A stretch of 64,000 bases of DNA from a virus. Made by a program: the position numbers and the translations under genes. Positions 34,704 through 51,464 of the stretch are shown piece after piece (position 1 is the first letter of the stretch; each line of letters opens with the position of its first letter). The notes below the pieces were generated by a model. It ran no database searches. It was not told the DNA's origin and saw nothing but the letters and a program-made list of their open reading frames with translations. The stretch covers positions 32,001 through 96,000 of the IMG/VR virus record IMGVR_UViG_3300007512_000012. One strand, written 5' to 3'.

Positions 34704-34770
34704 GGGCCATCTACTCCCTGCCCCGCCTCACGGAACCCCCTGGCCGGGTAGAACAAGGCAGGAGAACACC

Positions 34771-35373
34771 ATGACCAAGCCCCACGAACTCGTCGCCCTC
34801 ATCGACATGGACGGCACCGTCGCCGACTTCGACGGAGCCATGCGACGGGACCTCGCCACCCTCACCAGCCCCGGCGAGCAGGTGATCGCCGCCGGACCGG
34901 ACGACTCCGACGAGCCGCTCTGGCTGAAGGCCCGCAAGAAGCTCACCAAGACCCAGCCGGGCTGGTGGCGGAACCTGCCCGTGTACGGCATCGGGATGGC
35001 GGCCTACACCCACCTGCGCGTCGGGGATGTGCTCGCGGCACCACTCGACCTTCTCGGTCCACGCCTGCGTGCTGCGGTACGGCCCCTTGGTCAGGACCAT
35101 CATCGTGAAGCCCGCGTCGCGCAGGTGACCATCACCGAGGACAAGGGCCTGGTCTACGGCAAGGTGCTGGTAGACGACTGGCCCGCCTACGGCATCCGCT
35201 GGTTGGAGTGGCGGCCTCGTGGCCTGCTGGTGGTCCCGGCCTGGCCCTGGAACACGCTCGACCAGTACCCCGAGCACCTACACCCGAACATCATCCGGCT
35301 CACCGGGGACTGGCCCACGGAGCTTCCCCTGCTGCTGGAGCGCATCGCGGCCATCAAGGAGAGCGCACGCTGA
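34771..35373 (+). CDS. HAD-family 5'(3')-deoxyribonucleotidase with an internal segment inverted
   Basis: LIDMDGTVADF (motif I) and DK..VYGKVLVDD (motifs III/IV) on plus; the motif II segment (VLTKGP...AWTEKVEWC) is on the minus strand at 35021-35117. Confidence 0.85.
   Translation: MTKPHELVALIDMDGTVADFDGAMRRDLATLTSPGEQVIAAGPDDSDEPLWLKARKKLTKTQPGWWRNLPVYGIGMAAYTHLRVGDVLAAPLDLLGPRLRAAVRPLGQDHHREARVAQVTITEDKGLVYGKVLVDDWPAYGIRWLEWRPRGLLVVPAWPWNTLDQYPEHLHPNIIRLTGDWPTELPLLLERIAAIKESAR
35011..35127. repeat. Perfect 10-bp inverted repeats flanking a 97-bp inverted segment
   Basis: CACCTGCGCG at 35011-35020 and CGCGCAGGTG at 35118-35127. Confidence 0.9.
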
Positions 35374-35385
35374 TCGGGGCGTCTT

Positions 35386-35428
35386 AAACGACGAAACCCA
35401 CCGGCCTCCCGAAGGGGCTACGGTGGGT
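35386..35428 (-). terminator. Terminator hairpin, possibly bidirectional
   Basis: Stem ACCCACCG...CGGTGGGT with an inner C-UUCG-G loop, then TTCGTCGTTT. Confidence 0.65.
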
Positions 35429-35857
35429 CCGCAGATGACTGTCACCGGCTGCGGCCTTGTGGGGCCGTTCCCGATGTTGTCCCCGTCCTCCCTTGGGAGG
35501 CCGACTTCCGCAACCGCTCTCGCGGGCTGCTTCCGCCAGACCGAGTCAGGTGAAGGTGATGGTCCCTTCTTCCTCGGCGTGGGTTTCGACCGGAGTTTCC
35601 TCCAGCCAGGTATTGGGCTTGAACCCCTCTACCCTGACCCCTTGTTCAAGAGGGGTCCCATCGTTGAGGCCAGCGGCTAACTGACCCCCTACTCTGCCGC
35701 CTGCTCCCCTTGCCACGGGGTCGGCCTGCGGTAGAGGCCCCGCCGGGTTTCCCCTTTGGAGCGCGCCAGGATGGCTGTCCTGGCTTCCGGTTCGGGGTGA
35801 CTGCGGTGCCTAGTCCCGTCTGCCTCGAACCGTGCCGCTCGGGTCTCCCCGTGCAGC
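35390..35857 (-). ncRNA. Candidate large structured non-coding RNA (~470 nt), family unassigned
   Basis: Own promoter and terminator, no credible ORF, about 12 consecutive hairpins with several GNRA tetraloops. Confidence 0.7.
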
Positions 35858-35864
35858 GAGGGAG

Positions 35865-35893
35865 GTTCTAAACGACCTGGACTCGGGGGTCAA
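35865..35893 (-). promoter_or_regulatory. Sigma70-type promoter TTGACC-N17-TAGAAC with an upstream A-tract
   Basis: Exact 17-bp spacing; AAAAAA tract upstream; points into the structured region. Confidence 0.7.
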
Positions 35894-36489: not shown

Positions 36490-37362
36490 CTAGCGGGTGA
36501 CGGTCAGGCGGGCGAGGCCGCGCGGGTTGTAGGCCCCGAGGCCCAGGTTCTCGAAGATCGAGAAGCCGATCATCCGGCGCTTCGGGTCGTCGGCCGACAG
36601 GACCGTCAGCTCGGTGCGGACCGGGATGCGGCCGAACATCTCCGGCTCGCAGCACAGGTACACCGTGCCGTTGGGCACGAGGCGGCTGGTGACGACGTTG
36701 GCCCCGTAGATGACCCCCTGGAGGCCCGTCTTCAGGAGCGTCGCCTGCGACTCGATGTCGAGGATGTCGCGGCCGAACTTGCGGATGTCCGCGTAGTCCC
36801 GCGCGTTCATGTAGATGCGGGCGACCCGGAGGTCGTGCCGCTCGATGAGCGCGAAGGCGTCCGCCAGCACCGCGCCCGAGATCGGGGCGATGACGGGGAT
36901 GTCGGCGTTGAGCTGACCCGGCAGGGAGTCGAAGCCCGCCGTGGCGACGGCGTCGAGGACGGCGAAGACGCGCTCGTCCTCGGCGGCCTGGATCTGCGCC
37001 CGGCCGAGGTCCTGGGACCGCTCGATCAGGTCGAAGCGGCGCTCCTTGATCTGGGTGAGCGGGATCTCCGGGTTCGACGCGATCTCGAAGAGCGGGAAGA
37101 TCACCCGGCGCGGCTTGGTGACCGCGAGGATGTTCTGGCCCTCTTCGCCGACCACGTAGGCGGTGATGTCGGGGTCCTTGTCGTAGATGGGCAGCGCACC
37201 GTCGGGGAGCTGCTCGACCAGGAAGGTCTTGCGGCCCACGGCGGCGTAGTCCCGCCGCGTGCGGAGGGGCTGCGTCATCGACGCGGCGAGCTTGGCGCGA
37301 CCCTGCGGGGTCTTGATGTACTCGCCGATGATCTTCTGCTTGACGGCGTTGGTGGCGTTCAT
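36490..37362 (-). CDS. Major capsid protein (HK97 fold, Bxz1/cluster C-like type)
   Basis: LAASMTQPLR..RDY, LPDGALPIYD, LFEIASNPEI, AQIQAAEDERVF resemble my recollection of Bxz1-type capsid proteins; follows protease, scaffold and decoration genes; strong RBS and terminator. Confidence 0.85.
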   Translation of the reverse strand: MNATNAVKQKIIGEYIKTPQGRAKLAASMTQPLRTRRDYAAVGRKTFLVEQLPDGALPIYDKDPDITAYVVGEEGQNILAVTKPRRVIFPLFEIASNPEIPLTQIKERRFDLIERSQDLGRAQIQAAEDERVFAVLDAVATAGFDSLPGQLNADIPVIAPISGAVLADAFALIERHDLRVARIYMNARDYADIRKFGRDILDIESQATLLKTGLQGVIYGANVVTSRLVPNGTVYLCCEPEMFGRIPVRTELTVLSADDPKRRMIGFSIFENLGLGAYNPRGLARLTVTR

Positions 37363-38288: not shown

Positions 38289-39806
38289 TCAGGAGAAGCT
38301 GCCGCTCACGTCCGGGTCGGAGGCCCAGAGGTTCGACAGCTCGGCGATCTCGTTGCCGCCGCTGGAGGCGACCTTCGGGACCTGGCCGACCGACTTGACG
38401 CCCTTGGACGCCTTGCGGGCCTGCGGCTGGAGGATGGCCGCGAGGCTGGCCTCCTTGTCGCTGCCCTCGTCGTCGCCCTCGTCCTCGTCCTCGGAGCCGA
38501 AGACCTCGTTGAAGGCGGCCTTGTCGGCGGCCGTCAGCTCGGTCCCGTCCGAGAGGCCCATCGGGTCGAAGCCGGTGGCGAAGAACTCGGCGTCGGAGGC
38601 CTCCTTGTCGGAGCCGCCCTCGTCCTCGTCGTCGTCGCCGCCCTCGTCGTCGGAGCCCTCGTCGTCACCGCCCTCGTCGTCGGAGCCCTCGTCCTCGTCG
38701 TCCTCGGACTTCTTGGCGGCCTCCTTGTCGGAGCCCTCCTCGTCGTCCTCGTCGTCGGAGGCGTTCTTCGAGGCCATCACGTCGCCGCAGGCGATCTCGC
38801 CGTCGTCCACCAGCTCGTCGTCCATGCCGTACTGCATGGCCTGGAGCATCTCCAGCTCGTCGTCGTCGAACTCGGCGACGTGGCCGAAGGCGGTCTTGTC
38901 GGACGCCTCCTTGTCGGAGCCCTCGTCGTCGTCGGACTCGTCCTCGGAGCCCTCCTTCTTCTTGGCCTCGCACATCTCCTGCATCTTGCCGTCGAGCTTC
39001 TCGCAGCCCGCGAGGACCTCGGCCCGAGCGATGATGCCGTCGTTGTCGGTGTCGAGGGACGCGAACATGGCGCGGGGGCCGGTCCAGTCCTCGGCCGTCA
39101 CGAAGCCGTCGCCGTCCAGGTCGAAGGCGTCGAACATCGCCATGACGGGGTTCGCGGCCTTGTCCGAGACGGCCGCCTCTTCCTTCTTCGCCTCCTGCTC
39201 GGACTTGCCGGAGGTGCCGAGGGTCTCGCCGCCGGGGTCGTTCTGGTCGGCGCTCTTGAGCGCCTTCAGCTCGGCCTCCATCGCGGCCAGGCGGGCCTCC
39301 ATCGGGTCCAGGGCCGGGGCCTCGTCCTCGGGGAACATCCCGAGCAGCTCCTCCTCCATCGAGAGGAAGTCGCCGCCGAGGCGCTCGACCGAGGCCTCCA
39401 GGGCGGTGTCGTCCATGCTCATGTAGCCGAACGCCTGGTTCTCGATGTCGTCCCACGACGCGGTCTTGCCGAGCGTGGCCCGCGCGAGCACGAGGCACTT
39501 GGCCGACTTGCGCCGGACGAGCTGCATCAGGTTGGCCTGGCGGCCGACCTGCCCGGTGTGGGCCGGGTGGTCCTGGTCCTCGACCCCGTAGCCGGGCGTC
39601 GCGGGCGGGCCGCTGTCCCCGTAGGGCGGCGGGTGAACGTCCTCGGCGAACTCCGAGGGGCCGCCGATGTTGTAGTCGTCCTTGCCCGGATCGTCCTGGG
39701 TGTGGGCCGGGTGGTCCTGGTCCTCGACTCCGTAGCCGGGGGTTGCGGGGGGAGCAGCCGCCTCACGGTCGAGGGCCGCCCACGTCATGCGCTGACGAGT
39801 GCTCAT
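38289..39806 (-). CDS. Putative capsid scaffolding protein, acidic, with an EF-hand pair
   Basis: Lies between protease and capsid genes; ATGA-coupled; DLDGDGFVTAED and DTDNDGIIARAE loops; D/E-rich repeats. Confidence 0.7.
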   Translation of the reverse strand: MSTRQRMTWAALDREAAAPPATPGYGVEDQDHPAHTQDDPGKDDYNIGGPSEFAEDVHPPPYGDSGPPATPGYGVEDQDHPAHTGQVGRQANLMQLVRRKSAKCLVLARATLGKTASWDDIENQAFGYMSMDDTALEASVERLGGDFLSMEEELLGMFPEDEAPALDPMEARLAAMEAELKALKSADQNDPGGETLGTSGKSEQEAKKEEAAVSDKAANPVMAMFDAFDLDGDGFVTAEDWTGPRAMFASLDTDNDGIIARAEVLAGCEKLDGKMQEMCEAKKKEGSEDESDDDEGSDKEASDKTAFGHVAEFDDDELEMLQAMQYGMDDELVDDGEIACGDVMASKNASDDEDDEEGSDKEAAKKSEDDEDEGSDDEGGDDEGSDDEGGDDDEDEGGSDKEASDAEFFATGFDPMGLSDGTELTAADKAAFNEVFGSEDEDEGDDEGSDKEASLAAILQPQARKASKGVKSVGQVPKVASSGGNEIAELSNLWASDPDVSGSFS

Positions 39807-41269
39807 CGCTTCGTCTCCTTGCCTGTGGCGACTGCCAGGGATGGGTTCCTGCTCCCGTTGCGATCCTGGCCTCGCCGCGAGATGAGCTTGCCGAGCTTGA
39901 TCAAGGTCTGTGCCTCGGCGGTTGTGGGCTTGCGGCCGAGCGCCGCTCGACAAGCCCGGAGGAATTGACTCGACGAGCTGTACTCGCCGATGTCGCCGAG
40001 CTGCGCAGCAGCCCGGTACACAGGCACGGGGATCTCCACCCCGTACTCCGCGTGCAGTAGGGCCACCTTGTCCATCAGGTCGGTGTCGCTCGAAGCGTGC
40101 CGACAGAGGAAAGCCACAGTGGCGTCGTACACCGCCGCCTGCTTGACCACGTTGTCGTTGGGAGCCGCCGAAGACTCCTCGGGACCGAGGGCCTCGTCGA
40201 GGTCCTTCTGGTCCATGTCCTTCTTGAGCTTCTTCTTGACCCGATCCCGCATGTGATCGGTCAGCTCACGTTCCATGTCGTCGAACGGGCCGCCCTCGTC
40301 CTTCTTCTCGGCCGGGGCGTCCACGTCGTCGTCTTCGTCGCCCCACCCGGCCATGAAGTGGTCGCCGCCGAAGGCGAGGGCAGCGGCCTTGCGGCGGGTG
40401 CCCTTCGTCCACTCCTCCGGGGGAGTCGCGAGGATGGCCGAGGCGGCCTTGCCGAGCTTGTCGCCCTGGTGGATGGCGAGCACGTTGCGGAGGACCGCGC
40501 CCGTGAAGGCGGGGGTGCCGACCCAGGACGCCTCGATGAAGTGGACGCCGCCGGTCGGGTCGAGGCTCGGGTGACCGCACAGCTCCGCGACGCGGTGCTG
40601 ACGCCCCTGCTCGTCGAAGAAGACGTTCCCCTTCTCGTACTTGATGTGGGGGCACATCTCCGTCTCGTCGGCGGCCCAGTGCCCGCACTTCGTGCAGATG
40701 GTGCCATCGACGGTGCAGCCCATCGACAGGGTGCCCATCTTGCCGGACTCGATGGCCTCGACCAGGTCCGCGTGCTTGCGGTCCGTGGCGATGAGGATGT
40801 CCACGTAGACCGAGTCGCCGATGTCGCGAGCGACCGCGTCGATGACCCGGCCCTTCGACAGCTCCTCGACCTGGACGTGCTCGACGAAGTTCTGCGCCCC
40901 GATGAAGGTCCGGTAGCTCTTGAGCAGAACGTCCCGGTCCCAGGCGTCGAGGTTGTTGTTGATGAACTTGTCGCAGCCGAGCTTGACCCGGAACTTGCCG
41001 TACTTCCGGTTGATCCTGAAGCCGCCCTCGGAGTGCTTGCCGAGCTTCGTGTTCGGCGGCTCGAAGGTGTCCACCGACGCCACGATGGTCGCGTGGGTCA
41101 GCAGGTAGTCGCTCGGGTTGAAGGGCTTGCCGAAGATCTCCGACGCGCGGTCGATGAGGTTCTCCGACACCTCCGCAGCGGCCTTGGCGGCCGTGCGAAC
41201 CTTCGCCCAGCCCGCACGTCCGACGTGCGGGGTGACGACCTCAGCCCTGGCGTACTTCAGGAAGGCCAT
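39803..41269 (-). CDS. Prohead (capsid maturation) protease
   Basis: NNNLDAW...YRTFIG..NFVEH...SKGRVID...LSMGC...CTKCGH...CPHI...FIEASWVGTPAF. Confidence 0.8.
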   Translation of the reverse strand: MAFLKYARAEVVTPHVGRAGWAKVRTAAKAAAEVSENLIDRASEIFGKPFNPSDYLLTHATIVASVDTFEPPNTKLGKHSEGGFRINRKYGKFRVKLGCDKFINNNLDAWDRDVLLKSYRTFIGAQNFVEHVQVEELSKGRVIDAVARDIGDSVYVDILIATDRKHADLVEAIESGKMGTLSMGCTVDGTICTKCGHWAADETEMCPHIKYEKGNVFFDEQGRQHRVAELCGHPSLDPTGGVHFIEASWVGTPAFTGAVLRNVLAIHQGDKLGKAASAILATPPEEWTKGTRRKAAALAFGGDHFMAGWGDEDDDVDAPAEKKDEGGPFDDMERELTDHMRDRVKKKLKKDMDQKDLDEALGPEESSAAPNDNVVKQAAVYDATVAFLCRHASSDTDLMDKVALLHAEYGVEIPVPVYRAAAQLGDIGEYSSSSQFLRACRAALGRKPTTAEAQTLIKLGKLISRRGQDRNGSRNPSLAVATGKETKR

Positions 41270-43046: not shown

Positions 43047-46000
43047 TCAGGCCACCAGGTCTTGCTCGTCCTCCGAAAGAACCGCTTTTTCCATCGCCGT
43101 GAACTCATCAGGCGACATCTGCTCGATTCTTTTTCGCTCGGCGGGGTCCTTCACATTTTCGAGAAAGTCCCGCTTCCGCTCCTCGGGCGACCGCTCCGGT
43201 CGCACTGAAGGGTCGTCCAGCAGCGAGAGGTCTGCCCCACCGGCCACGGCCCGCAGCACTGCAACCGCCGTGTCCTGCGCGTCGGGCTCCACGTCCATGT
43301 CGTCGATGGCGTCGGCCGTCGCCTCGGCCTGTGCCCGGACCACAGCTTCCCGCGACCGCTTCATGCACTCGGCCTGCGTCTTGCCCTCCTCCAGGCACGC
43401 CTGGAGGGCCTCATCGACCGCCGAATCCACGGCCTCGCGGGTCTTGTCCTCCACCTCGTCCGCCGTCTGGTCGAACAGCTCGGGGAGGTTGGCGGGGTCC
43501 CGCTTCTTCCTGGTGATGGCCGCCGCGACGCCCTGCACGGTGGTCATGTGCATCACGCCCATGTCGCGGATCATGGCCCGCAGGTACTCCTGCACCTCGG
43601 GAGCCATGTCCGGGTTGTCGGCGAGCGCCTTGACCAGCGGCTCCCACGAGGTGCCCTCGGAGATCGCCGCCAGGCCCTCGTCGTCGAGCTTGCCCATCGC
43701 GTCGCGGACAGCCGCCCGGCCCTCCGCCGCGTAGACCTTCGACGAGTCCTTCAGGAACAACACCTCGGCGTTGCCCTGCTTGACCATCTGCTTGAGCACC
43801 AGCTTGAGCTTGCTGTTGAGCGGCTCCCGCACCAGGCGGCCGTCCGGGTGCTTCGCGTCGAAGTCCTCGTCGTTGAGCACCGCCGCCGCGTGGATGCCGT
43901 CGATGATCGCGTTCAGCTCGTCGTGCTCGGGGCTGCCCTTCTCGAAGTCACCGAGCTTCGCCGCCGCGTCCTCGGCCACCTGCCTTCGCTGGTCCGGGCT
44001 CACCCGCCGGTAGAGCTTCATCGCCTGCATCGCCCGTTCGGTCCGGGCGTCATCGTCGAGCTGCTCGGAGGAGAGGGGCTGGCCGCCGACGTTGGTGGGG
44101 TCGAGCAGCAGGGCCTCCTGGGCCTTCGCCTGGACCACGGCCTCGGCCAGCTCGTCGATGTCGTCCCCGTCCACGCCCTTGAAGGGGTCCTTCGCGATGT
44201 CCTTCATCGCCGACACCGTCACGCCGAAGTCGTCGAACAGCTCGCGGAGCTGCTTCATCTCCGCCTTGTACGCCGCATGGAACTCGGCCGAGTCGGCCTT
44301 CTCCATGAGCAGCAGAGCCGTCTCCTCCGTGATGACCTTGTCCCCGTAGAGCTTCTCGGCCAGGTCGGTGATCTCGGCCGTGAACTTCTCCTTGTCGGCC
44401 TTCGCCTGCTCCTTCTTCTTGGCCTCGTCCTCCTTGGCCTTCTCGGCCACGGCTTCCTCGGCCTCCTCCGGGGAGTCGGCGTCGCCCTTCGCGTAGGCCT
44501 CGGCCTTCGCCTTCGAGTCCTTGTCCTTGCCGAAGTCGTTGCGCACCTGGCCCTTCGCGTTCATCGCGTTCCAGGTGCCGTCGTCGGACGGCCACACGTC
44601 GCCGGGCTTGCGCTTCTGGCTCGGCTCGCCCTCGGCCATCAGCCAGCGGAGAGCGACGCGGTTGGCGGCCAGGGTCGCCCGCTTCTTGTAGTTGTTGCTC
44701 AGGTCCCGGTCGCCGTCCGCCCCGAAGCCCTCGATGTCCGGGTCGTCCTCCTTCATCCGGTTCCGGCGGAGATCGCGACGCGGGGGCTTCTTCGTGGGGT
44801 TGCGGCGGTTGAGGCGCTCGACCTCCTCCTCTTCCTTCTCGGCCTTCGACTTCGTGGCCCGCCGGGTCATCAGGGTGTGCCCCTGCTCCCGACCTGTCTC
44901 CACGAACCCTCGCTGCTTGAGCATCCGAACCGCGTGCGGGTTCACCGCATCGAGGCAGAACTGGATGTCGGGGAACGGCTCGACCAGGTCGTCGTACTGG
45001 CTGATGGCGATGTCCATCAGCTTCCCTCCGAGCCCCCTTCGCTGCCAGCCATCCGGGTCCACGACGATGTCGAAGGCGTAGCACTCCTGGTCACCCGAAT
45101 CCGACGAGTCGAACAAGGCAGCCACGAGCTTGCCCCCGGCCTCGTACCCCGCCACGAAGTCCATGTGCGACAAGATGTTGATCCCGGCCTTCTGTGCCAG
45201 CTTCCACGGGTCGGAACCTCGCGGAGCCCGCCAGACCAGGCGGGGAGACGCCCCCTCGACGAACCACCTGGCGGCCAGGCGACGGGTGGCCTGCTTGTAG
45301 AGCTGCCGCTTGCCGATGAGCTGCCAGGACAGGCCGATCTTCCCGTCCTCTGCGTTGCCGAGGTAGCCCGCCCCCTGAAGCTCGGTGACCACGTCGGGCA
45401 TCACCGGGTAGCCCCGCCAGGTGAACGTGCCGTCGTCCGCCACCAGGATGTGCTCGGCACCCCCGGCGGCCCGGTCCATGTCGTTGATGAGCGCCCACTC
45501 GTAGGCGGTCAGGCTGGAGATCAGCCCCTCGAAGCCCACCAGGCTGACCAGCGGGTCCGGGCTGGTGTAGCCCACCTCCTCCGGCCAGGCGTTGTAGATG
45601 GAGATGATGGCGACCTTGTCGGCCGCGAGGCGCATCGGGTGACGAAGACCGTAGACGCCGTGCGCCCGGTTCCGCCGCTTCTCCGACTGCATCGAGCCCT
45701 TCGCCATGCTGTACCACTGGCGGCCGGTCCGCCAGACGTAGCCGATGAGCCCGCCGCCGAGGTCCTTCTCGGGGTCCTCGTTCACGCTGGTCATCTCGGA
45801 CTCGCCCCACCCGAAGACCGCGACGATCTCGTCGGCTCGGCCGAGGATCTGCCGCAGGCCCCACGAGAGCCGCCCCTGCTTGTCGAGCTTCTCCTTGACC
45901 GTGCCGTCCCGCATGAAGGTGTCTTCGAGGCCCGGCACGAGGTACTGGCTGCGGAGCGTGCTGGCCTCGTGCCCCACCTCCTTGGCCGCCTCATCGAGCG

Positions 46001-49000
46001 CCTGCTGGAACTCCTTCTTGAGCTTCTGCTCCCGCTCCTTCTTGTCGGTCGGGAGCTTGCCGCCCTTGCCCCGGATGGCCTTGAGCCGGGTCTGGACTTC
46101 GCGGTTGGCGTGCAGCCCCCGGATGTCCTTCGCGGTGATGCCGTGGGGCTTCAGGTAGGCGTTCACGTCGCCTGCCTCGACGCCCTCGAACACGGGGTCG
46201 GTGCCGGACTTGCCCTTCAGGGCCTCGCGGAGCCCGCTGACCAGGCCGGAGTCGCTGGTGGTCTTCGTCTGGCTCACCCCGGACTTGCCGACGTACTTGA
46301 TGGTCGCCTTGCCGCCGGAGAGGGTGACGTGCTTCGCCTGCCAGCCGGTGACCCCGAAGTGGCCGTCCTTCGCCGAACCGGGGTTGCCGACCCGCTCGTA
46401 GGTGTCGTTCATCAGGCCCACGGCCAGGGCGCACAGCCGGGTCTTCTCGTCCTTCGACTTGAGGTCCTTGCCGATCTGGCCGCGCAGCTTGTCGAGGTTC
46501 TGCCGGAGCTTCTCGACCTTCTTCGCCTTCTCGCGGTTGCGGTGCTGGACCTGGCCCTCGCTGTACTCGTAGACCGTGACCTGCTCGCCCTTCTGGTTCT
46601 TGACCTTCTTCTTCGTGCCCTTGGCCGCCGTCTTCAGGCCGCCGGGCAGGGTCGGTGCCCGGAGCACGGCGATGACGTTGCCGGAGGAGGGGAAGTCGCG
46701 CGCGAGGCTCTTCCACACCCGCCCGGCAGCGGTGCTGGTGCCGGAGCCGCCGGAGCACTCGTAGGGCATGAACAGGAAGGGGCCGACCTTCTTGAACCAC
46801 TCGACCATGACGGCCAGGTACATCGCCTTGCCGATGCCGAGGCCCTGCTTGCTCTCGTCGGTGATGAACGCCTTGTAGACCTGGAGGGCTCGGGTGTTCG
46901 TCCGCTCCTCCCCGTCGCTCGCCACCCACCGAGGTCGGCTGGTGTCCTCGACCTGCGGGTACTTCGCCAGCAGCTTCAGGACATCCCGCCCACACGTCTC
47001 CCGCTCGGGGTAGCGCATCACGCTGGCGTGGAGCCCGCCGATGGGGGCTCGGCCGTAGTAGACGCCTGCGAGGATGGCGTCGCTGTCGGACTTGACCCGG
47101 TACTTGACCTTGTTGCCCTCGTGCTCCATCAGCGGGGTGTTCGGGCCGAACCGCTGCGCGTACCGGGAGGCCACCCGGTCCACGAGCATCCTGTGGATCT
47201 CGACCTCGCCCGCTTCACCGCGAGGCAGGGCCGGGCGGCCCTGGCCGTAGAGCGGCATCGTGCTGTCCACCGGAGACGGCTGCGTCTCGGCCAGCAGGTG
47301 CAACGGAACGATCGTCTCCTCCTCCCCGGACGCCTGCACGGCGTCGGCGAACTGCCTGTTGAACAGCAGGGCGAGGGAGTCGATGGGGACGCTCTTCGTG
47401 ATGTCGTCGGCACCGACTTCGAGGACGACGCGGTGCATGGTCGCCTGGTTGTAGCGGTCGCACAGCCGCCGGATGGCCGCGTTGGCCTCCTTCGACTGCC
47501 CCACAGCGTCCACAGCCTCGTTGAGCGAGTCCTGCACCATCTGCGCGAGGGCGTCCTCGGTCAGCTCGCCGCCCACCTTGCTGACGCCGAACCGGGCTTC
47601 GAGCTTCTTGTCGAGCAGCTTGGTGGCCTCGGCGACCACCTTCTTCGCGAAGATGTAGCCGGGCGGGGGCGGGATCGCGACGTACATGGCGGCGTTGATG
47701 CCGCCCTTCATCACCTCGCGGATGAGCAGCCGAGCGATGCGGGCACGCTCCTTCGGGTCTGGCACGTCGCCCTTGAGGAGCTTCGCCACCCCGGAGGCCA
47801 CGTCCTTGCCCCGCTCGACCTTCCGCTTGATGACCTTCTTCGCGATAGCCGCTGCACCGCTGACGGCCGACCGCAGCTTCCCGCGCTTCGGCTTGTCATC
47901 CTCGGCCTCGGGCGCGTCGTCGGTGACGGTGTGGTTCTTCGGGTCAGCTCCAGGGTGCTCCCGCAGGTACTCCTTGCGGGCCTCGTCCGTGCCGAACTCA
48001 CGAGCGGACTTCTCCGCCTTGTCGCGGGCGGCCTGGTCCTTGTCGTAACGGACCTTGAAGAGCTTGACCTCCTTCTTGGCCCCCTGCCCGCCCTGGTCCT
48101 TCTTCGGACGCTTGCGAACGATGACCGTGGGGTCGCCCTTCTCGTTCTCGCCGAAACCCTCGATGCGGCCGGGGCTGTTGAGGTACTTGCCCGTGAACAG
48201 CGGGTCGCCGATCTCCAGCTCGAACTTCTTCGCCGTGCGGGACAGCGGGTACGTCTCGGGCTTCGCCATCCCCCACACCGCCAGGCCCTCGACCGTCCAC
48301 GAACCCGTGGGCACCTGGCCCTCGTACTTCGAGTCGAGCCCGTCCAGGTAGGCGAGGGTGATGTGCGGGTTGTAGATGAGGAGCGAGCGGTCCTTCAGGG
48401 CGAACCCGGCATCGGTCAGCCGAACCCGGATGCCGTCTCGAAGCTGGTCCATGTACCCGTCGAACCGCACCGGGCAGTACGCCACTCGGCGTTCCTTCTC
48501 CGGGTGCTCGAAGTAGTCGAGGGGCTGGATGGTGGCCCGCATCGGCCGGTACTGGCTGGCCTCGGCCTGCACGGCTGCCAGGAACTCGGCCTCTCGCCCG
48601 CGCACGTCCCCCACGTAGAGCAGCGTGCAGTGGGGCGGGCTGTCGTCCTCGTCGCCGAGGCTCGGGAACTTCGCGGCCAACTCCTCCGGCAGCGGGAGCA
48701 TCAGCCCCACCTTCGCCCCGGAGCCCTTCACGGCCGCCGTGCGAGCTGCCTTCCAGCCCTGGCTCCGCCGCTCGTCGGTCGGCAGGCCGACCTCCTGGCC
48801 GGAGTCGAAGCCGATGTAGGCCCACCCGTCGCCCGCCTCGATGCTCGTCACCTGGTCGCCCTCATCGGGGAACCAGGTCGGGGCCATCGCCGCCGTGCGG
48901 CCACCCTGAAGGTCGAGCCTGACGCGCTGCGTCAGCCGCCGCTTGTCGGTCACGAGGGACGGACTGTCGAGCAGGTGACGGCGAGCCAGGTCGGTGACCT

Positions 49001-51464
49001 GGCTGATCTGGCCGCCCCGGAGCCCGAACTCCTTGATGAGCGACCGCATGTCCAGCACCTTGCCGGGCTGCTTGAGGGCCGCGATGAACTGGTCGGTGGC
49101 GTCAAACGACAGGTCCACCGCGATCTCCCGCAGGCGGGCGACCTGGTAGCGGTCGAGGAACCCGAGCCGCTTCCCGCTCGGGAGCCCCATGTCCATCATC
49201 GCGAACAGGGCATCCGAGCGCGTCTCATCGGCCACGTTGAACAGGGCGTTCGCCATCGCCCCGTTGCTCTGCGCGATGTCCTTGATCTCGTCGAGCAGCC
49301 CGAGCCGCTGCATCTCCTCCAGAGCCTTCTTCGCAGTGGGCTCCCGCAGGAGATCGACGAGCATGGTGCTCAGGTGGCCCGGCTTGATGTTCTTGAGCTT
49401 GCCCTTGTGCCGCCGGATGGCCGCCTCGGTGTCGGGCGTCAGCTTGAAGCCGTACTTCACGATGAACTTGATGGCCCGGACCATGCGGGTCGCGTCGTCG
49501 GTGAAGGTCTTGTCCGGGCTGGACGGGCACTTCATCGAGCCCGCCGCCAGGTCGGCGAGCCCGCACCCGGTCAGGTCGATGATCTCGGCCTTGTCCGGGC
49601 CGTTCGCCAGGTCTTGCAGCCGCCACATCAGCGTGTTGTGGACCACCACCCCGTTCGCCACGAAAGCAGGCTCGACCCCCTCGCCCATCGAGATGTCGAA
49701 TACGTCCTGCTGCCCCGCATCCTCAACCGACGTGACCTCGACGTACTGGTAACCGAGGTCGAACAACCGCTGGAGCTTGGCAAACTCGTCCGGGCTGATG
49801 GCCTTGAGGCTCGCCAGGAACCCGTCGAAACCCCCTCGGGCATGAGCATCGTGGAGAAGCCGCTGAACCTTCCGAACAGGCTCATGGACATCGGGGAGGG
49901 TTCTGAACCCATCCCCGTCCGTGGCGTAGACGGCCCGGCTGGTGTCCTGCTTCCGCCCGGCAAGGAACCCCCGAATGTACTCTGCGGGGATGCCGTAGCG
50001 GTTGCGGGCTTTGTTGTCCCGCCGGGTGTAATCGAACCCCTTGGTGACCATCCACGGTTGGATTTTCTCCCACAGGAGAGCCGAATCCACAGCGTTGATG
50101 TAGACGAACCTGCCCTTCACCTTGCTCAAAATGCCGTGAGCACCGAGAAGCACCTGCAACTGCTGGCGAACATGGGGGGACGCCGAGCAGTAGGTGATAC
50201 GCCCCGTCTCGGGCCGGATCGAGCCGTCACCCTCCAGATAGGCCGCAAGAAACGCCCACTGACTTCGCTCGTCAGCTTGCAGGATGGACCACGGGACGAT
50301 CTTGTGGTGGGAGGCTGACTTGCCGTCCTTGGACCCCCCGCAGTACAGGCCGAGGTCTTCCAGCCATCCGACCACGGCCTTGCTGTCGGCGTAGATGTCG
50401 TAGCCGTCTGCGCTGGCGACAAACTCCACCCCACGCAAGATGCGGACGGACCCCTTCTCGACCACCTTGTTGCGGGAGGGCTGGAACCCGAAGGTGGCGT
50501 GGAAGCACTCGACGTAGTGGGAGATGAGGGCTGGATCAGAGTTGCTGAACGACACCCGCTTGTGGGTGTTCGACCCCTCGGCCACGATGCACCCGATCAG
50601 GAACGCCAGTTCGGGCGTCATCCTCTCAGGCTTGCGGACATCCTTGAGTCGCCCACGCTTGGGCTGTACCGGATCGGGCAGGTCGAGAGCAAGGGGCGTC
50701 CGCCTCGCCACCTGCCGCACGGGCACACAGAGCAGGTCACCTTCCTCAAGCTGGTCCGCCTGAACCCACTCGTGGTCGTGGCCCCGAAGGACCAGAACCG
50801 GATGGTGGGGCGTGCAGGAGAAAGAATGACCCCACTCAGTCGTCACCCGCAGGGTGGGGGCGTAGCCGCTGTACTGCCACCCCACAGCAGTCGAAGGGCC
50901 GTCCTGCCCCGCCACGGTCAACCGGATGTCCTGATGATCCCCCCCGTCACGAGAGGCGATCTGGTCGATGCGGAGGATGCCCTTCTCAGTAGGGATTAGG
51001 GTGTCCCCGGCCATGCAGTTGAAGGTGAACTCGCGGCGACGGGCGTCGTCCTCGATGGTCGCCTTCTCGACGTGCGTGGGCTTGTACCCGCCGTCCGTGT
51101 AGGACTCGATGCGGGCGTTGGCGATCTCGATGTCCTCGCCCTGGAGGTTCTCCTCCCCGAGCATCCAGTCGCCCACGATGTGCAGCAGGGCGACGCCGTA
51201 GTCGTTGGTCTGGATGCGGGTCTTCGCGGGGATGGCCTTGGCGACCTCCTTGGCGAACCAGTCGGAGTCCTTGCCGCGCAGGGCCACCGAGTCGATGACC
51301 ACGTCGATGTCCTTGATCGGGCGGCGGATGACGAAGTTGCGGACGGCCCCGCCCACGACGTAGACGTGCCTGCCGACCCCCAGGCGCTTCGCCAGGTCCG
51401 ACAAGAACTTCATCAGCGCCAGGGACGCCGAGCTGCTCATCGCGATGTGGGTCGGCACTGCCAC
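43047..51464 (-). CDS. 2805-aa polyvalent protein: CCA/poly(A)-type nucleotidyltransferase (with intein), 2H phosphoesterase, GNAT, topoisomerase IB, GNAT, helical tail
   Basis: VVGGAVRN..KDIDV, RRREFTFN, DDATRMVRAIKF; PHCTL and PHITL; QGLGIGKAMY; ERVGN, YVGKSG, TAKDIR, GHEASTLRSQY; WQRRGLGGKLM. Confidence 0.88.
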   Translation of the reverse strand: MAVPTHIAMSSSASLALMKFLSDLAKRLGVGRHVYVVGGAVRNFVIRRPIKDIDVVIDSVALRGKDSDWFAKEVAKAIPAKTRIQTNDYGVALLHIVGDWMLGEENLQGEDIEIANARIESYTDGGYKPTHVEKATIEDDARRREFTFNCMAGDTLIPTEKGILRIDQIASRDGGDHQDIRLTVAGQDGPSTAVGWQYSGYAPTLRVTTEWGHSFSCTPHHPVLVLRGHDHEWVQADQLEEGDLLCVPVRQVARRTPLALDLPDPVQPKRGRLKDVRKPERMTPELAFLIGCIVAEGSNTHKRVSFSNSDPALISHYVECFHATFGFQPSRNKVVEKGSVRILRGVEFVASADGYDIYADSKAVVGWLEDLGLYCGGSKDGKSASHHKIVPWSILQADERSQWAFLAAYLEGDGSIRPETGRITYCSASPHVRQQLQVLLGAHGILSKVKGRFVYINAVDSALLWEKIQPWMVTKGFDYTRRDNKARNRYGIPAEYIRGFLAGRKQDTSRAVYATDGDGFRTLPDVHEPVRKVQRLLHDAHARGGFDGFLASLKAISPDEFAKLQRLFDLGYQYVEVTSVEDAGQQDVFDISMGEGVEPAFVANGVVVHNTLMWRLQDLANGPDKAEIIDLTGCGLADLAAGSMKCPSSPDKTFTDDATRMVRAIKFIVKYGFKLTPDTEAAIRRHKGKLKNIKPGHLSTMLVDLLREPTAKKALEEMQRLGLLDEIKDIAQSNGAMANALFNVADETRSDALFAMMDMGLPSGKRLGFLDRYQVARLREIAVDLSFDATDQFIAALKQPGKVLDMRSLIKEFGLRGGQISQVTDLARRHLLDSPSLVTDKRRLTQRVRLDLQGGRTAAMAPTWFPDEGDQVTSIEAGDGWAYIGFDSGQEVGLPTDERRSQGWKAARTAAVKGSGAKVGLMLPLPEELAAKFPSLGDEDDSPPHCTLLYVGDVRGREAEFLAAVQAEASQYRPMRATIQPLDYFEHPEKERRVAYCPVRFDGYMDQLRDGIRVRLTDAGFALKDRSLLIYNPHITLAYLDGLDSKYEGQVPTGSWTVEGLAVWGMAKPETYPLSRTAKKFELEIGDPLFTGKYLNSPGRIEGFGENEKGDPTVIVRKRPKKDQGGQGAKKEVKLFKVRYDKDQAARDKAEKSAREFGTDEARKEYLREHPGADPKNHTVTDDAPEAEDDKPKRGKLRSAVSGAAAIAKKVIKRKVERGKDVASGVAKLLKGDVPDPKERARIARLLIREVMKGGINAAMYVAIPPPPGYIFAKKVVAEATKLLDKKLEARFGVSKVGGELTEDALAQMVQDSLNEAVDAVGQSKEANAAIRRLCDRYNQATMHRVVLEVGADDITKSVPIDSLALLFNRQFADAVQASGEEETIVPLHLLAETQPSPVDSTMPLYGQGRPALPRGEAGEVEIHRMLVDRVASRYAQRFGPNTPLMEHEGNKVKYRVKSDSDAILAGVYYGRAPIGGLHASVMRYPERETCGRDVLKLLAKYPQVEDTSRPRWVASDGEERTNTRALQVYKAFITDESKQGLGIGKAMYLAVMVEWFKKVGPFLFMPYECSGGSGTSTAAGRVWKSLARDFPSSGNVIAVLRAPTLPGGLKTAAKGTKKKVKNQKGEQVTVYEYSEGQVQHRNREKAKKVEKLRQNLDKLRGQIGKDLKSKDEKTRLCALAVGLMNDTYERVGNPGSAKDGHFGVTGWQAKHVTLSGGKATIKYVGKSGVSQTKTTSDSGLVSGLREALKGKSGTDPVFEGVEAGDVNAYLKPHGITAKDIRGLHANREVQTRLKAIRGKGGKLPTDKKEREQKLKKEFQQALDEAAKEVGHEASTLRSQYLVPGLEDTFMRDGTVKEKLDKQGRLSWGLRQILGRADEIVAVFGWGESEMTSVNEDPEKDLGGGLIGYVWRTGRQWYSMAKGSMQSEKRRNRAHGVYGLRHPMRLAADKVAIISIYNAWPEEVGYTSPDPLVSLVGFEGLISSLTAYEWALINDMDRAAGGAEHILVADDGTFTWRGYPVMPDVVTELQGAGYLGNAEDGKIGLSWQLIGKRQLYKQATRRLAARWFVEGASPRLVWRAPRGSDPWKLAQKAGINILSHMDFVAGYEAGGKLVAALFDSSDSGDQECYAFDIVVDPDGWQRRGLGGKLMDIAISQYDDLVEPFPDIQFCLDAVNPHAVRMLKQRGFVETGREQGHTLMTRRATKSKAEKEEEEVERLNRRNPTKKPPRRDLRRNRMKEDDPDIEGFGADGDRDLSNNYKKRATLAANRVALRWLMAEGEPSQKRKPGDVWPSDDGTWNAMNAKGQVRNDFGKDKDSKAKAEAYAKGDADSPEEAEEAVAEKAKEDEAKKKEQAKADKEKFTAEITDLAEKLYGDKVITEETALLLMEKADSAEFHAAYKAEMKQLRELFDDFGVTVSAMKDIAKDPFKGVDGDDIDELAEAVVQAKAQEALLLDPTNVGGQPLSSEQLDDDARTERAMQAMKLYRRVSPDQRRQVAEDAAAKLGDFEKGSPEHDELNAIIDGIHAAAVLNDEDFDAKHPDGRLVREPLNSKLKLVLKQMVKQGNAEVLFLKDSSKVYAAEGRAAVRDAMGKLDDEGLAAISEGTSWEPLVKALADNPDMAPEVQEYLRAMIRDMGVMHMTTVQGVAAAITRKKRDPANLPELFDQTADEVEDKTREAVDSAVDEALQACLEEGKTQAECMKRSREAVVRAQAEATADAIDDMDVEPDAQDTAVAVLRAVAGGADLSLLDDPSVRPERSPEERKRDFLENVKDPAERKRIEQMSPDEFTAMEKAVLSEDEQDLVA
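49635..51017 (-). mobile_element. Intein (461 aa) with a LAGLIDADG homing endonuclease
   Basis: N-terminus CMAGDTLI, block B CTPHHPVL, LIGCIVAEG and FLAAYLEGDG, C-terminus FVANGVVVHN followed by T; visibly more AT-rich than flanks. Confidence 0.93.

Follow-up and report, generated by a model that had tools for sequence, protein, structure and literature searches.

The window analysed here is a stretch of 64,000 nucleotides, bases 32001-96000 of a 110,937-bp IMG/VR virus record (IMGVR_UViG_3300007512_000012), and its GC content is 67.9%. The phage with the DNA of this record is high-GC and marine. CheckV puts the completeness of the record at about 25%, which at 110,937 bp implies a very large phage genome, and a distant homologue of the nucleotidase described below (41% identity) is found on a viral contig of 441,904 bp. 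No tRNA was found in the window, and most of the neighbouring proteins are without a PHROG match. The features relevant to this study are listed below, in window numbering.

34760-34764, plus strand: ribosome-binding site AGGAG, six bases before the ATG of the nucleotidase gene
34771-35373, plus strand: NT5C-type 5'(3')-deoxyribonucleotidase gene (HAD superfamily), 200 aa long, with a disruptive in-place inversion in its interior
34804-34818, plus strand: HAD motif I DMDGT, still in frame in the nucleotidase gene
35011-35020, no strand assigned: left arm of the inverted repeat, CACCTGCGCG, within codons His-Leu-Arg; the left breakpoint lies somewhere within it
35021-35117, minus strand: inverted segment of 97 bp; the conserved core (D)AGFTMMVLTKGPYRSTQAWTEKVEWCREHIP(D), with the HAD motif II Thr in it, is read from its minus strand
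Complement of 35089-35091, minus strand: HAD motif II Thr codon ACC, encoded solely on this strand
35118-35127, no strand assigned: right arm of the inverted repeat, CGCGCAGGTG, within codons Ala-Gln-Val; the right breakpoint lies within it
35143-35145, plus strand: HAD motif III Lys, still in frame in the nucleotidase gene
35173-35178, plus strand: HAD motif IV DD, still in frame in the nucleotidase gene
36493-37362, minus strand: major head protein gene, in the structural block
39806-41269, minus strand: head maturation (prohead) protease gene, in the structural block

In a minus-strand structural block of more than 27 kb (24130-51464), no plus-strand gene other than the nucleotidase gene has coding-like GC3. 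The same placement of the gene is seen in four contigs that are syntenic with the window (L007, L008, L009 and L022), in which the upstream genes at about 32.6-34.0 kb match too. As a lone plus-strand gene among structural genes, it looks like an inserted accessory ('moron'-like) gene within the phage structural module. Neither a sigma-70-like promoter nor an intrinsic terminator was found around it. A minus-strand ORF of 188 aa overlying the gene has no family match and was taken as a by-product of GC-rich antisense sequence. The gap of about 1.1 kb between the nucleotidase and major head genes contains no ORF with coding-like GC3. At 35385-35860, the minus strand (476 nt) folds at -241.6 kcal/mol (z = -5.29, with 0 of 100 shuffles as good). 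No Rfam family reaches threshold, and the syntenic contig L008 shows 72% conservation of the DNA at 35542-35871. Farther along the block, 43047-51464 on the minus strand is a single ORF of 2805 aa with high GC3, which adjoins the head-assembly genes.

As given in the record, the nucleotidase protein has no Pfam match at all, PF06941 (NT5C) giving none at E <= 1, and a six-frame search of the whole record with PF06941 returned nothing at E <= 10. The same protein matches 384 database proteins, nearly all of which carry PF06941, as do almost all of its homologues at 40-68% identity. A profile built from the homologues matches the structures of the human cytosolic and mitochondrial 5'(3')-deoxyribonucleotidases, cdN and mdN (E = 4.5e-9), and in this alignment the LTKGP of the family pairs with their motif II (C-T-S-P), while the DMDG, EDK and DD motifs align too. 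Motif I (DxDxT, containing the nucleophile and the acid/base Asp) is represented by DMDGT at residues 12-16, of which D12, D14 and T16 are invariant in the family alignments; K125 of motif III and D135 and D136 of motif IV are likewise invariant and lie in frame in the as-given protein. The N- and C-terminal thirds of this protein, together with the middle when flipped, fit the family of cdN and mdN, whereas the as-given protein differs from family members in having neither motif II with its adjoining helix nor a Pfam match. At the DNA level, the gene has no match in the phage collection, and its relatives in the viral and metagenome contig sets are at most 67% identical.

Read on the plus strand, 35021-35117 is an unrelated filler of 32 residues, and residues 84-116 of the as-given protein contain no Ser or Thr, so that the motif II Thr is absent. 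When this interval was reverse-complemented by script and the gene translated again, the segment read DAGFTMMVLTKGPYRSTQAWTEKVEWCREHIPD, in column-by-column agreement with the block that is most strongly conserved in the family. Motif II in the family has the form (V/I)LTKGP, in which T93 is at least 90% conserved and pairs with the TS of human cdN. As given, the protein aligns with gaps to its two nearest homologues at 68% and 66% identity; after the flip the alignments are free of gaps and identity is 79% to both, a gain of 11-13 points. Scored against a profile of 115 homologues, the reading goes from 201 bits to 287 (+86). The spacer has been exactly reverse-complemented with no bases gained or lost, and the flipped reading aligns to the homologues ungapped. 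Both translations are 200 aa long and stop-free, and both agree with the strings in the initial annotation, whose description of the locus is thereby borne out: perfect 10-bp inverted repeats bound the segment, HAD motif II is missing as given, and flipping restores a deoxyribonucleotidase core. The inversion itself is far beyond chance.

The same cannot be said of the other two features noted there, the 10-bp repeats and the open antisense frame, which are at chance level. CACCTGCGCG and CGCGCAGGTG are exact reverse complements over 10 bp (14 of 16 bases in the extended repeat) and enclose 97 bp. Perfect inverted repeats of at least 10 bp with spacers of 20-300 bp number 44 in the window, compared with 39 +/- 7 in shuffled sequences; 10-bp inverted repeats thus occur here at background frequency. 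The 10-mer of the arm occurs twice in the window, 0.6 occurrences being expected and 12 of 100 shuffles reaching two, and no further copy of the arm motif is present anywhere in the window. Folded as single-stranded DNA, the region of 137 nt closes on the 10-bp arms with a stability that is not unusual (z = -1.57). As for the open frame, when antisense windows of 33 codons are taken in codon alignment from long ORFs, 81% of them contain no stop at the GC content of the window.

Related loci were used to determine the direction of change. In each of the four syntenic contigs, blastn finds plus-strand matches to both flanks of the gene and a minus-strand match to its middle, the latter covering 35014-35127, 35021-35098, 35012-35100 and 35020-35113. 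Three of these four matches begin within the left arm and all begin at or beside it; the right arm is reached by the L007 match alone, the other three ending 4-19 bp before it. In a further locus, L010, the reversed match is detected by tblastx only. Altogether, five related loci (four of them syntenic) hold the segment in the intact orientation. A check of 124 family proteins for the motif II and WxEK patterns found both missing nowhere but in the 90% cluster of the window protein. Since the relatives are intact and no other cluster among these proteins is without the core motifs, the inversion is the derived state, carried by the lineage of the window. The arms themselves are not shared in the same way: in a codon-level alignment of 13 related loci, only L007 keeps 9 of 10 and 8 of 10 of their bases, its two arms sharing a 6-bp core, and the others are without them. 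The arms arise from the codon choices made for HLR and AQV in this lineage.

The inverted form is not confined to one assembly. Five members make up the 90% cluster to which the as-given protein belongs, three full-length variants and two pieces. The member identical to the window protein was recovered from JGI, Logan and ENA, on three contigs of which the longest is 111,540 nt; the T2P variant is on a 1,020-nt ENA contig and the T59I variant on a 55,226-nt contig, and one of the pieces, a 125-aa fragment, still includes the inverted segment. The contigs bearing the three full-length variants and this fragment measure 111,540, 55,226, 1,020 and 6,248 nt and come from JGI, ENA and Logan. The other piece, P0122, is an 82-aa gene call that starts at GTG 35125 (window numbering), inside the right arm. 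Five sequencing runs from two marine or seawater metagenome studies (2019) each contain at least 60% of the window's sampled words and a sixth contains 18%; in runs X6 and X7 little of the window is present, or nothing. The two studies share year and habitat and may not be fully independent. Orientation in runs X1-X5 was judged from Logan contigs, which drop rare variants, and regions of the window lacking contig cover in X3-X5 were given no weight. In run X1, possibly the source of the window, the entire stretch is present as given in a 13,983-nt contig with a word depth of 12.3 and zero differences. In run X5, from the other study, a 321-nt contig covers 34822-35142, again with zero differences; it spans the left junction completely and crosses the right one by 25 nt.

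Short inverted repeats are places where amplification chimeras form, and the record derives from a metagenome assembly. The initial annotation had accordingly listed an amplification or assembly chimera among its options, such as an inverted chimera from multiple-displacement amplification or an assembler mis-join, with the true genome intact. A 10-bp repeat is, however, far below the assembler word size (words of 31 bases), and a precise double-junction inversion would need to recur in JGI, ENA and Logan, in three variants and in two studies, besides the X1 contig at its depth of 12.3. This recurrence across assemblies, variants and studies effectively excludes a chimera, which we regard as highly improbable.

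An intact copy of the segment was found in one run. In X3, a 193-nt contig consists of the left arm, the flipped segment, the right arm and then 35128-35189, as in an intact gene. It starts exactly at the outer edge of the arm, differs from the window at five or more letters (likeness class 90-95%) and closes with a tail of 14 letters that do not resemble it, a tail that is present in none of the related loci compared. L007 was considered as the strain of origin and rejected, being only 88% identical over the footprint of this contig, which is nearer to the window. On account of the differing letters and the unlike tail, the contig is attributed to another strain. Every sequence at least 99% identical to the window, among both contigs and protein variants, shows the as-given orientation. 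No viral contig matched a degenerate pattern for the intact left junction (HLRDAGFTMMVLTKGP), and no short protein fragment with the intact segment turned up when such fragments were sought. Both orientations co-occur in these waters; what the contigs demonstrate is a polymorphism among close relatives rather than flipping within one genome, and a minority of flipped molecules in the same strain would have escaped detection at this level.

The way in which the contigs end is in keeping with such a polymorphism. In X3, X4 and X5, contig breaks fall on the junctions or close to them, those near the right junction lying at 35116 in X4 and at 35124 and 35142 in X5. A word graph would break at the arm edge if inverted and non-inverted versions sharing the arm-adjacent sequence co-occur. 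The breaks at the right junction fit co-occurring strains of opposite orientation or with SNPs in the arms, and, together with the P0122 gene call, these contig ends fit a low-depth mixture of strains.

Whether the segment could be a programmed switch deserves consideration. The initial annotation had raised a flippable on/off or recoding switch (intragenic inverton). In such a reading, a site-specific invertase, encoded by the phage outside the fragment or by its host, would flip the 97-bp segment and thereby take the nucleotidase from its active state to an inactive or recoded one and back. Several observations are compatible with it, namely the perfect inverted repeats exactly at the segment borders, the 200-aa frame open in both orientations, and the seawater sample set that holds both orientations with contigs breaking at the junctions. 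Intragenic invertons of similar size (57 bp) have been documented in Bacteroides (10.1101/2023.03.11.532203). Repeats of such size and open antisense frames are nonetheless expected by chance, and the arms are unconserved even in the nearest syntenic relative, L007 (9/10 and 8/10, with a 6-bp shared core), and absent in the others. Sequences at least 99% identical to the window are all in one orientation, the sole contig with the intact orientation belonging to a diverged strain. In addition, the 'off' form would swap the core of the fold, a central strand and a helix, rather than a surface or specificity element.

A recombinase was also sought. The initial annotation had seen no invertase gene, and this holds for the whole record, itself a fragment: neither PF00239 (resolvase) nor PF00589 (tyrosine recombinase) has a match in the 110,937 bp, which are about 25% complete, although the controls respond. 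The absence of a resolvase/invertase or tyrosine recombinase from a fragment weighs lightly against an inverton, as a recombinase could lie elsewhere in the genome. Two of the checks proposed along with the switch, conservation of the repeats in homologues and a recombinase elsewhere in the genome, returned arms unconserved across the 13 related loci and no match in the record. The switch is left without positive support, and an invertase-driven inverton is considered very unlikely.

A switch without an enzyme can also be envisaged, in which template switching would revert the inversion recurrently at low frequency and both states would persist under fluctuating selection. Reversible spacer flips at perfect inverted repeats have been reported in yeast genes (PMC8604942), the arms at the present locus are still perfect after the inversion, and one sample holds both orientations in closely related strains, whose local identity is at least 90%. 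Set against these points, a single transition suffices for the data, in which the relatives are all intact and one tight cluster is inverted, and no pair of opposite orientations from the same strain was seen among the contigs. Moreover, the frequency of template switching drops with spacer length (PMC8604942), and 97 bp is long. Recurrent flipping of this kind is very unlikely. Taking the two mechanisms together, it is improbable that the segment works as a reversible switch in the phage genome; if it did, it would turn a nucleotide-pool enzyme on and off within the phage population. As far as we are aware, the intragenic invertons described so far are bacterial, and none has been described in a metabolic gene of a phage.

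The locus is best explained as a young, lineage-fixed micro-inversion that was mediated by short inverted repeats and that most likely inactivated an accessory phage nucleotidase, a reading which we hold to be probable. The remaining option of the initial annotation, a fixed inactivating inversion, is accordingly the one that gains support, as the inverted form recurs in several assemblies and variants and the ancestral orientation is retained in the relatives. Before the inversion, the ancestral codons for His-Leu-Arg and Ala-Gln-Val may by chance have formed a perfect 10-bp inverted repeat with its arms 97 bp apart, and one enzyme-independent event would then have reverse-complemented the spacer in place. 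This could have happened through a replicating polymerase switching template twice within the arms, or through illegitimate recombination (break-and-join) between them; the sequence would fit either route, and the two cannot be told apart from it. The inversion leaves the length unchanged and hence the downstream frame intact, and with antisense usually stop-free at 68% GC the ORF stays open. In the protein, unrelated sequence takes the place of 32 residues of the HAD core, which make up its central beta-strand, where motif II lies, and the helix after it. Given that no recombinase was found in the record and that the sites are not conserved, and given the precedents described below, we infer that the mechanism was enzyme-independent and arose in replication or repair.

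Precedents are available from bacteria and yeast. In E. coli KLY, an evolved laboratory strain, a homogeneous 24-bp inversion with 8-bp flanking repeats scrambles an antitoxin protein (PMC4272514, Genome Med 2014). Like the phage case, it is a short intragenic in-place inversion between short perfect repeats, homogeneous, recoding or disruptive without a stop, and with no invertase; it differs in being 24 bp long and in a laboratory clone, whereas the phage segment is four times longer (97 bp) and occurs in natural populations and several metagenomes. In Saccharomyces cerevisiae, spacers of 2-5 bp in coding sequence are inverted, sometimes reversibly, when the polymerase switches template between perfect arms that measure at least 10 bp (PMC8604942, Sci Rep 2021). 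Here too the arms are perfect over at least 10 bp and unchanged, the spacer is exactly reverse-complemented and the frame is kept, but the yeast spacers alter only one or two residues, while the phage spacer of 97 bp replaces 32 residues and is expected to be deleterious to the protein. Inversions at short inverted repeats in E. coli have reportedly been described by Schofield, Agbunag and Miller (Genetics 1992).

Among programmed systems, intragenic invertons are the closest analogue of the phage inversion. They occur in Bacteroides and other bacteria, where they are recoding or introduce a premature stop, the BT0375 inverton being 57 bp long (Chanin et al., 10.1101/2023.03.11.532203). In common with the phage segment, they are of similar size, bounded by repeats and wholly within a gene, and recoding leaves the frame open. 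In contrast, they are defined by the presence of both orientations in clonal samples and are ascribed to invertases, neither of which was found for the phage segment in the contigs and in a record about 25% complete, nor was repeat conservation. Loci nearly 100% in one orientation may be unable to flip (10.1101/2023.03.11.532203).

The invertible segments of phages are of another kind. The G segment of Mu with Gin and the C segment of P1 with Cin are kilobases long and switch tail-fibre genes by means of an adjacent serine invertase gene and conserved crossover sites. They resemble the present case as inversions bounded by inverted repeats in a phage genome, but the kilobase size, the tail-fibre genes, the adjacent invertase and the conserved sites do not apply to the nucleotidase segment.

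Evidence on the age of the inversion comes from the flipped reading, which keeps every conserved residue of the family. Compared with four to five outgroups, the lineage of the window has 6 unique amino-acid changes versus 13-14 in P0002 and P0003, and dN/dS against L007 is 0.17 in the segment versus 0.29 in the flanks. Since the conserved residues are retained, the changes are few and dN/dS is low, the information stored in antisense has not decayed, and the inversion is evolutionarily young; it looks like a one-off event.

The consequences for the protein were considered with AlphaFold2, which was run on the as-given protein and on the intact homologue P0003 with the same family alignment. 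Over residues 91-120, pLDDT was 71, 61 and 67 for the as-given protein versus 91, 97 and 98 for P0003, and it was similar elsewhere. That the as-given model shows the family topology is an effect of the alignment and no evidence of folding, so that only the local drop in confidence is used here. With motif II missing and the core replaced, the protein as encoded has most likely lost its enzyme activity. The gene is most likely a fresh pseudogene of an accessory, moron-like gene.

This kind of mutation is already known, and the present locus is an unusually clean and large natural example of it: an in-place inversion of about 100 bp caught soon after the event, with the ancestral orientation preserved in syntenic relatives. 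It also carries a warning for annotation. In high-GC genomes such inversions keep a full-length ORF, and gene callers and length checks see a normal gene, even though the protein no longer matches its family and has probably ceased to function; annotators would enter it as a 'hypothetical protein' or take the change for a run of substitutions. A frame-preserving intragenic inversion bounded by repeats is, on its own, no evidence of a programmed inverton, a claim that needs conservation of the repeats, a recombinase and mixed orientations within one strain. For the phage itself, the finding suggests that an NT5C-type nucleotidase is dispensable in this lineage.
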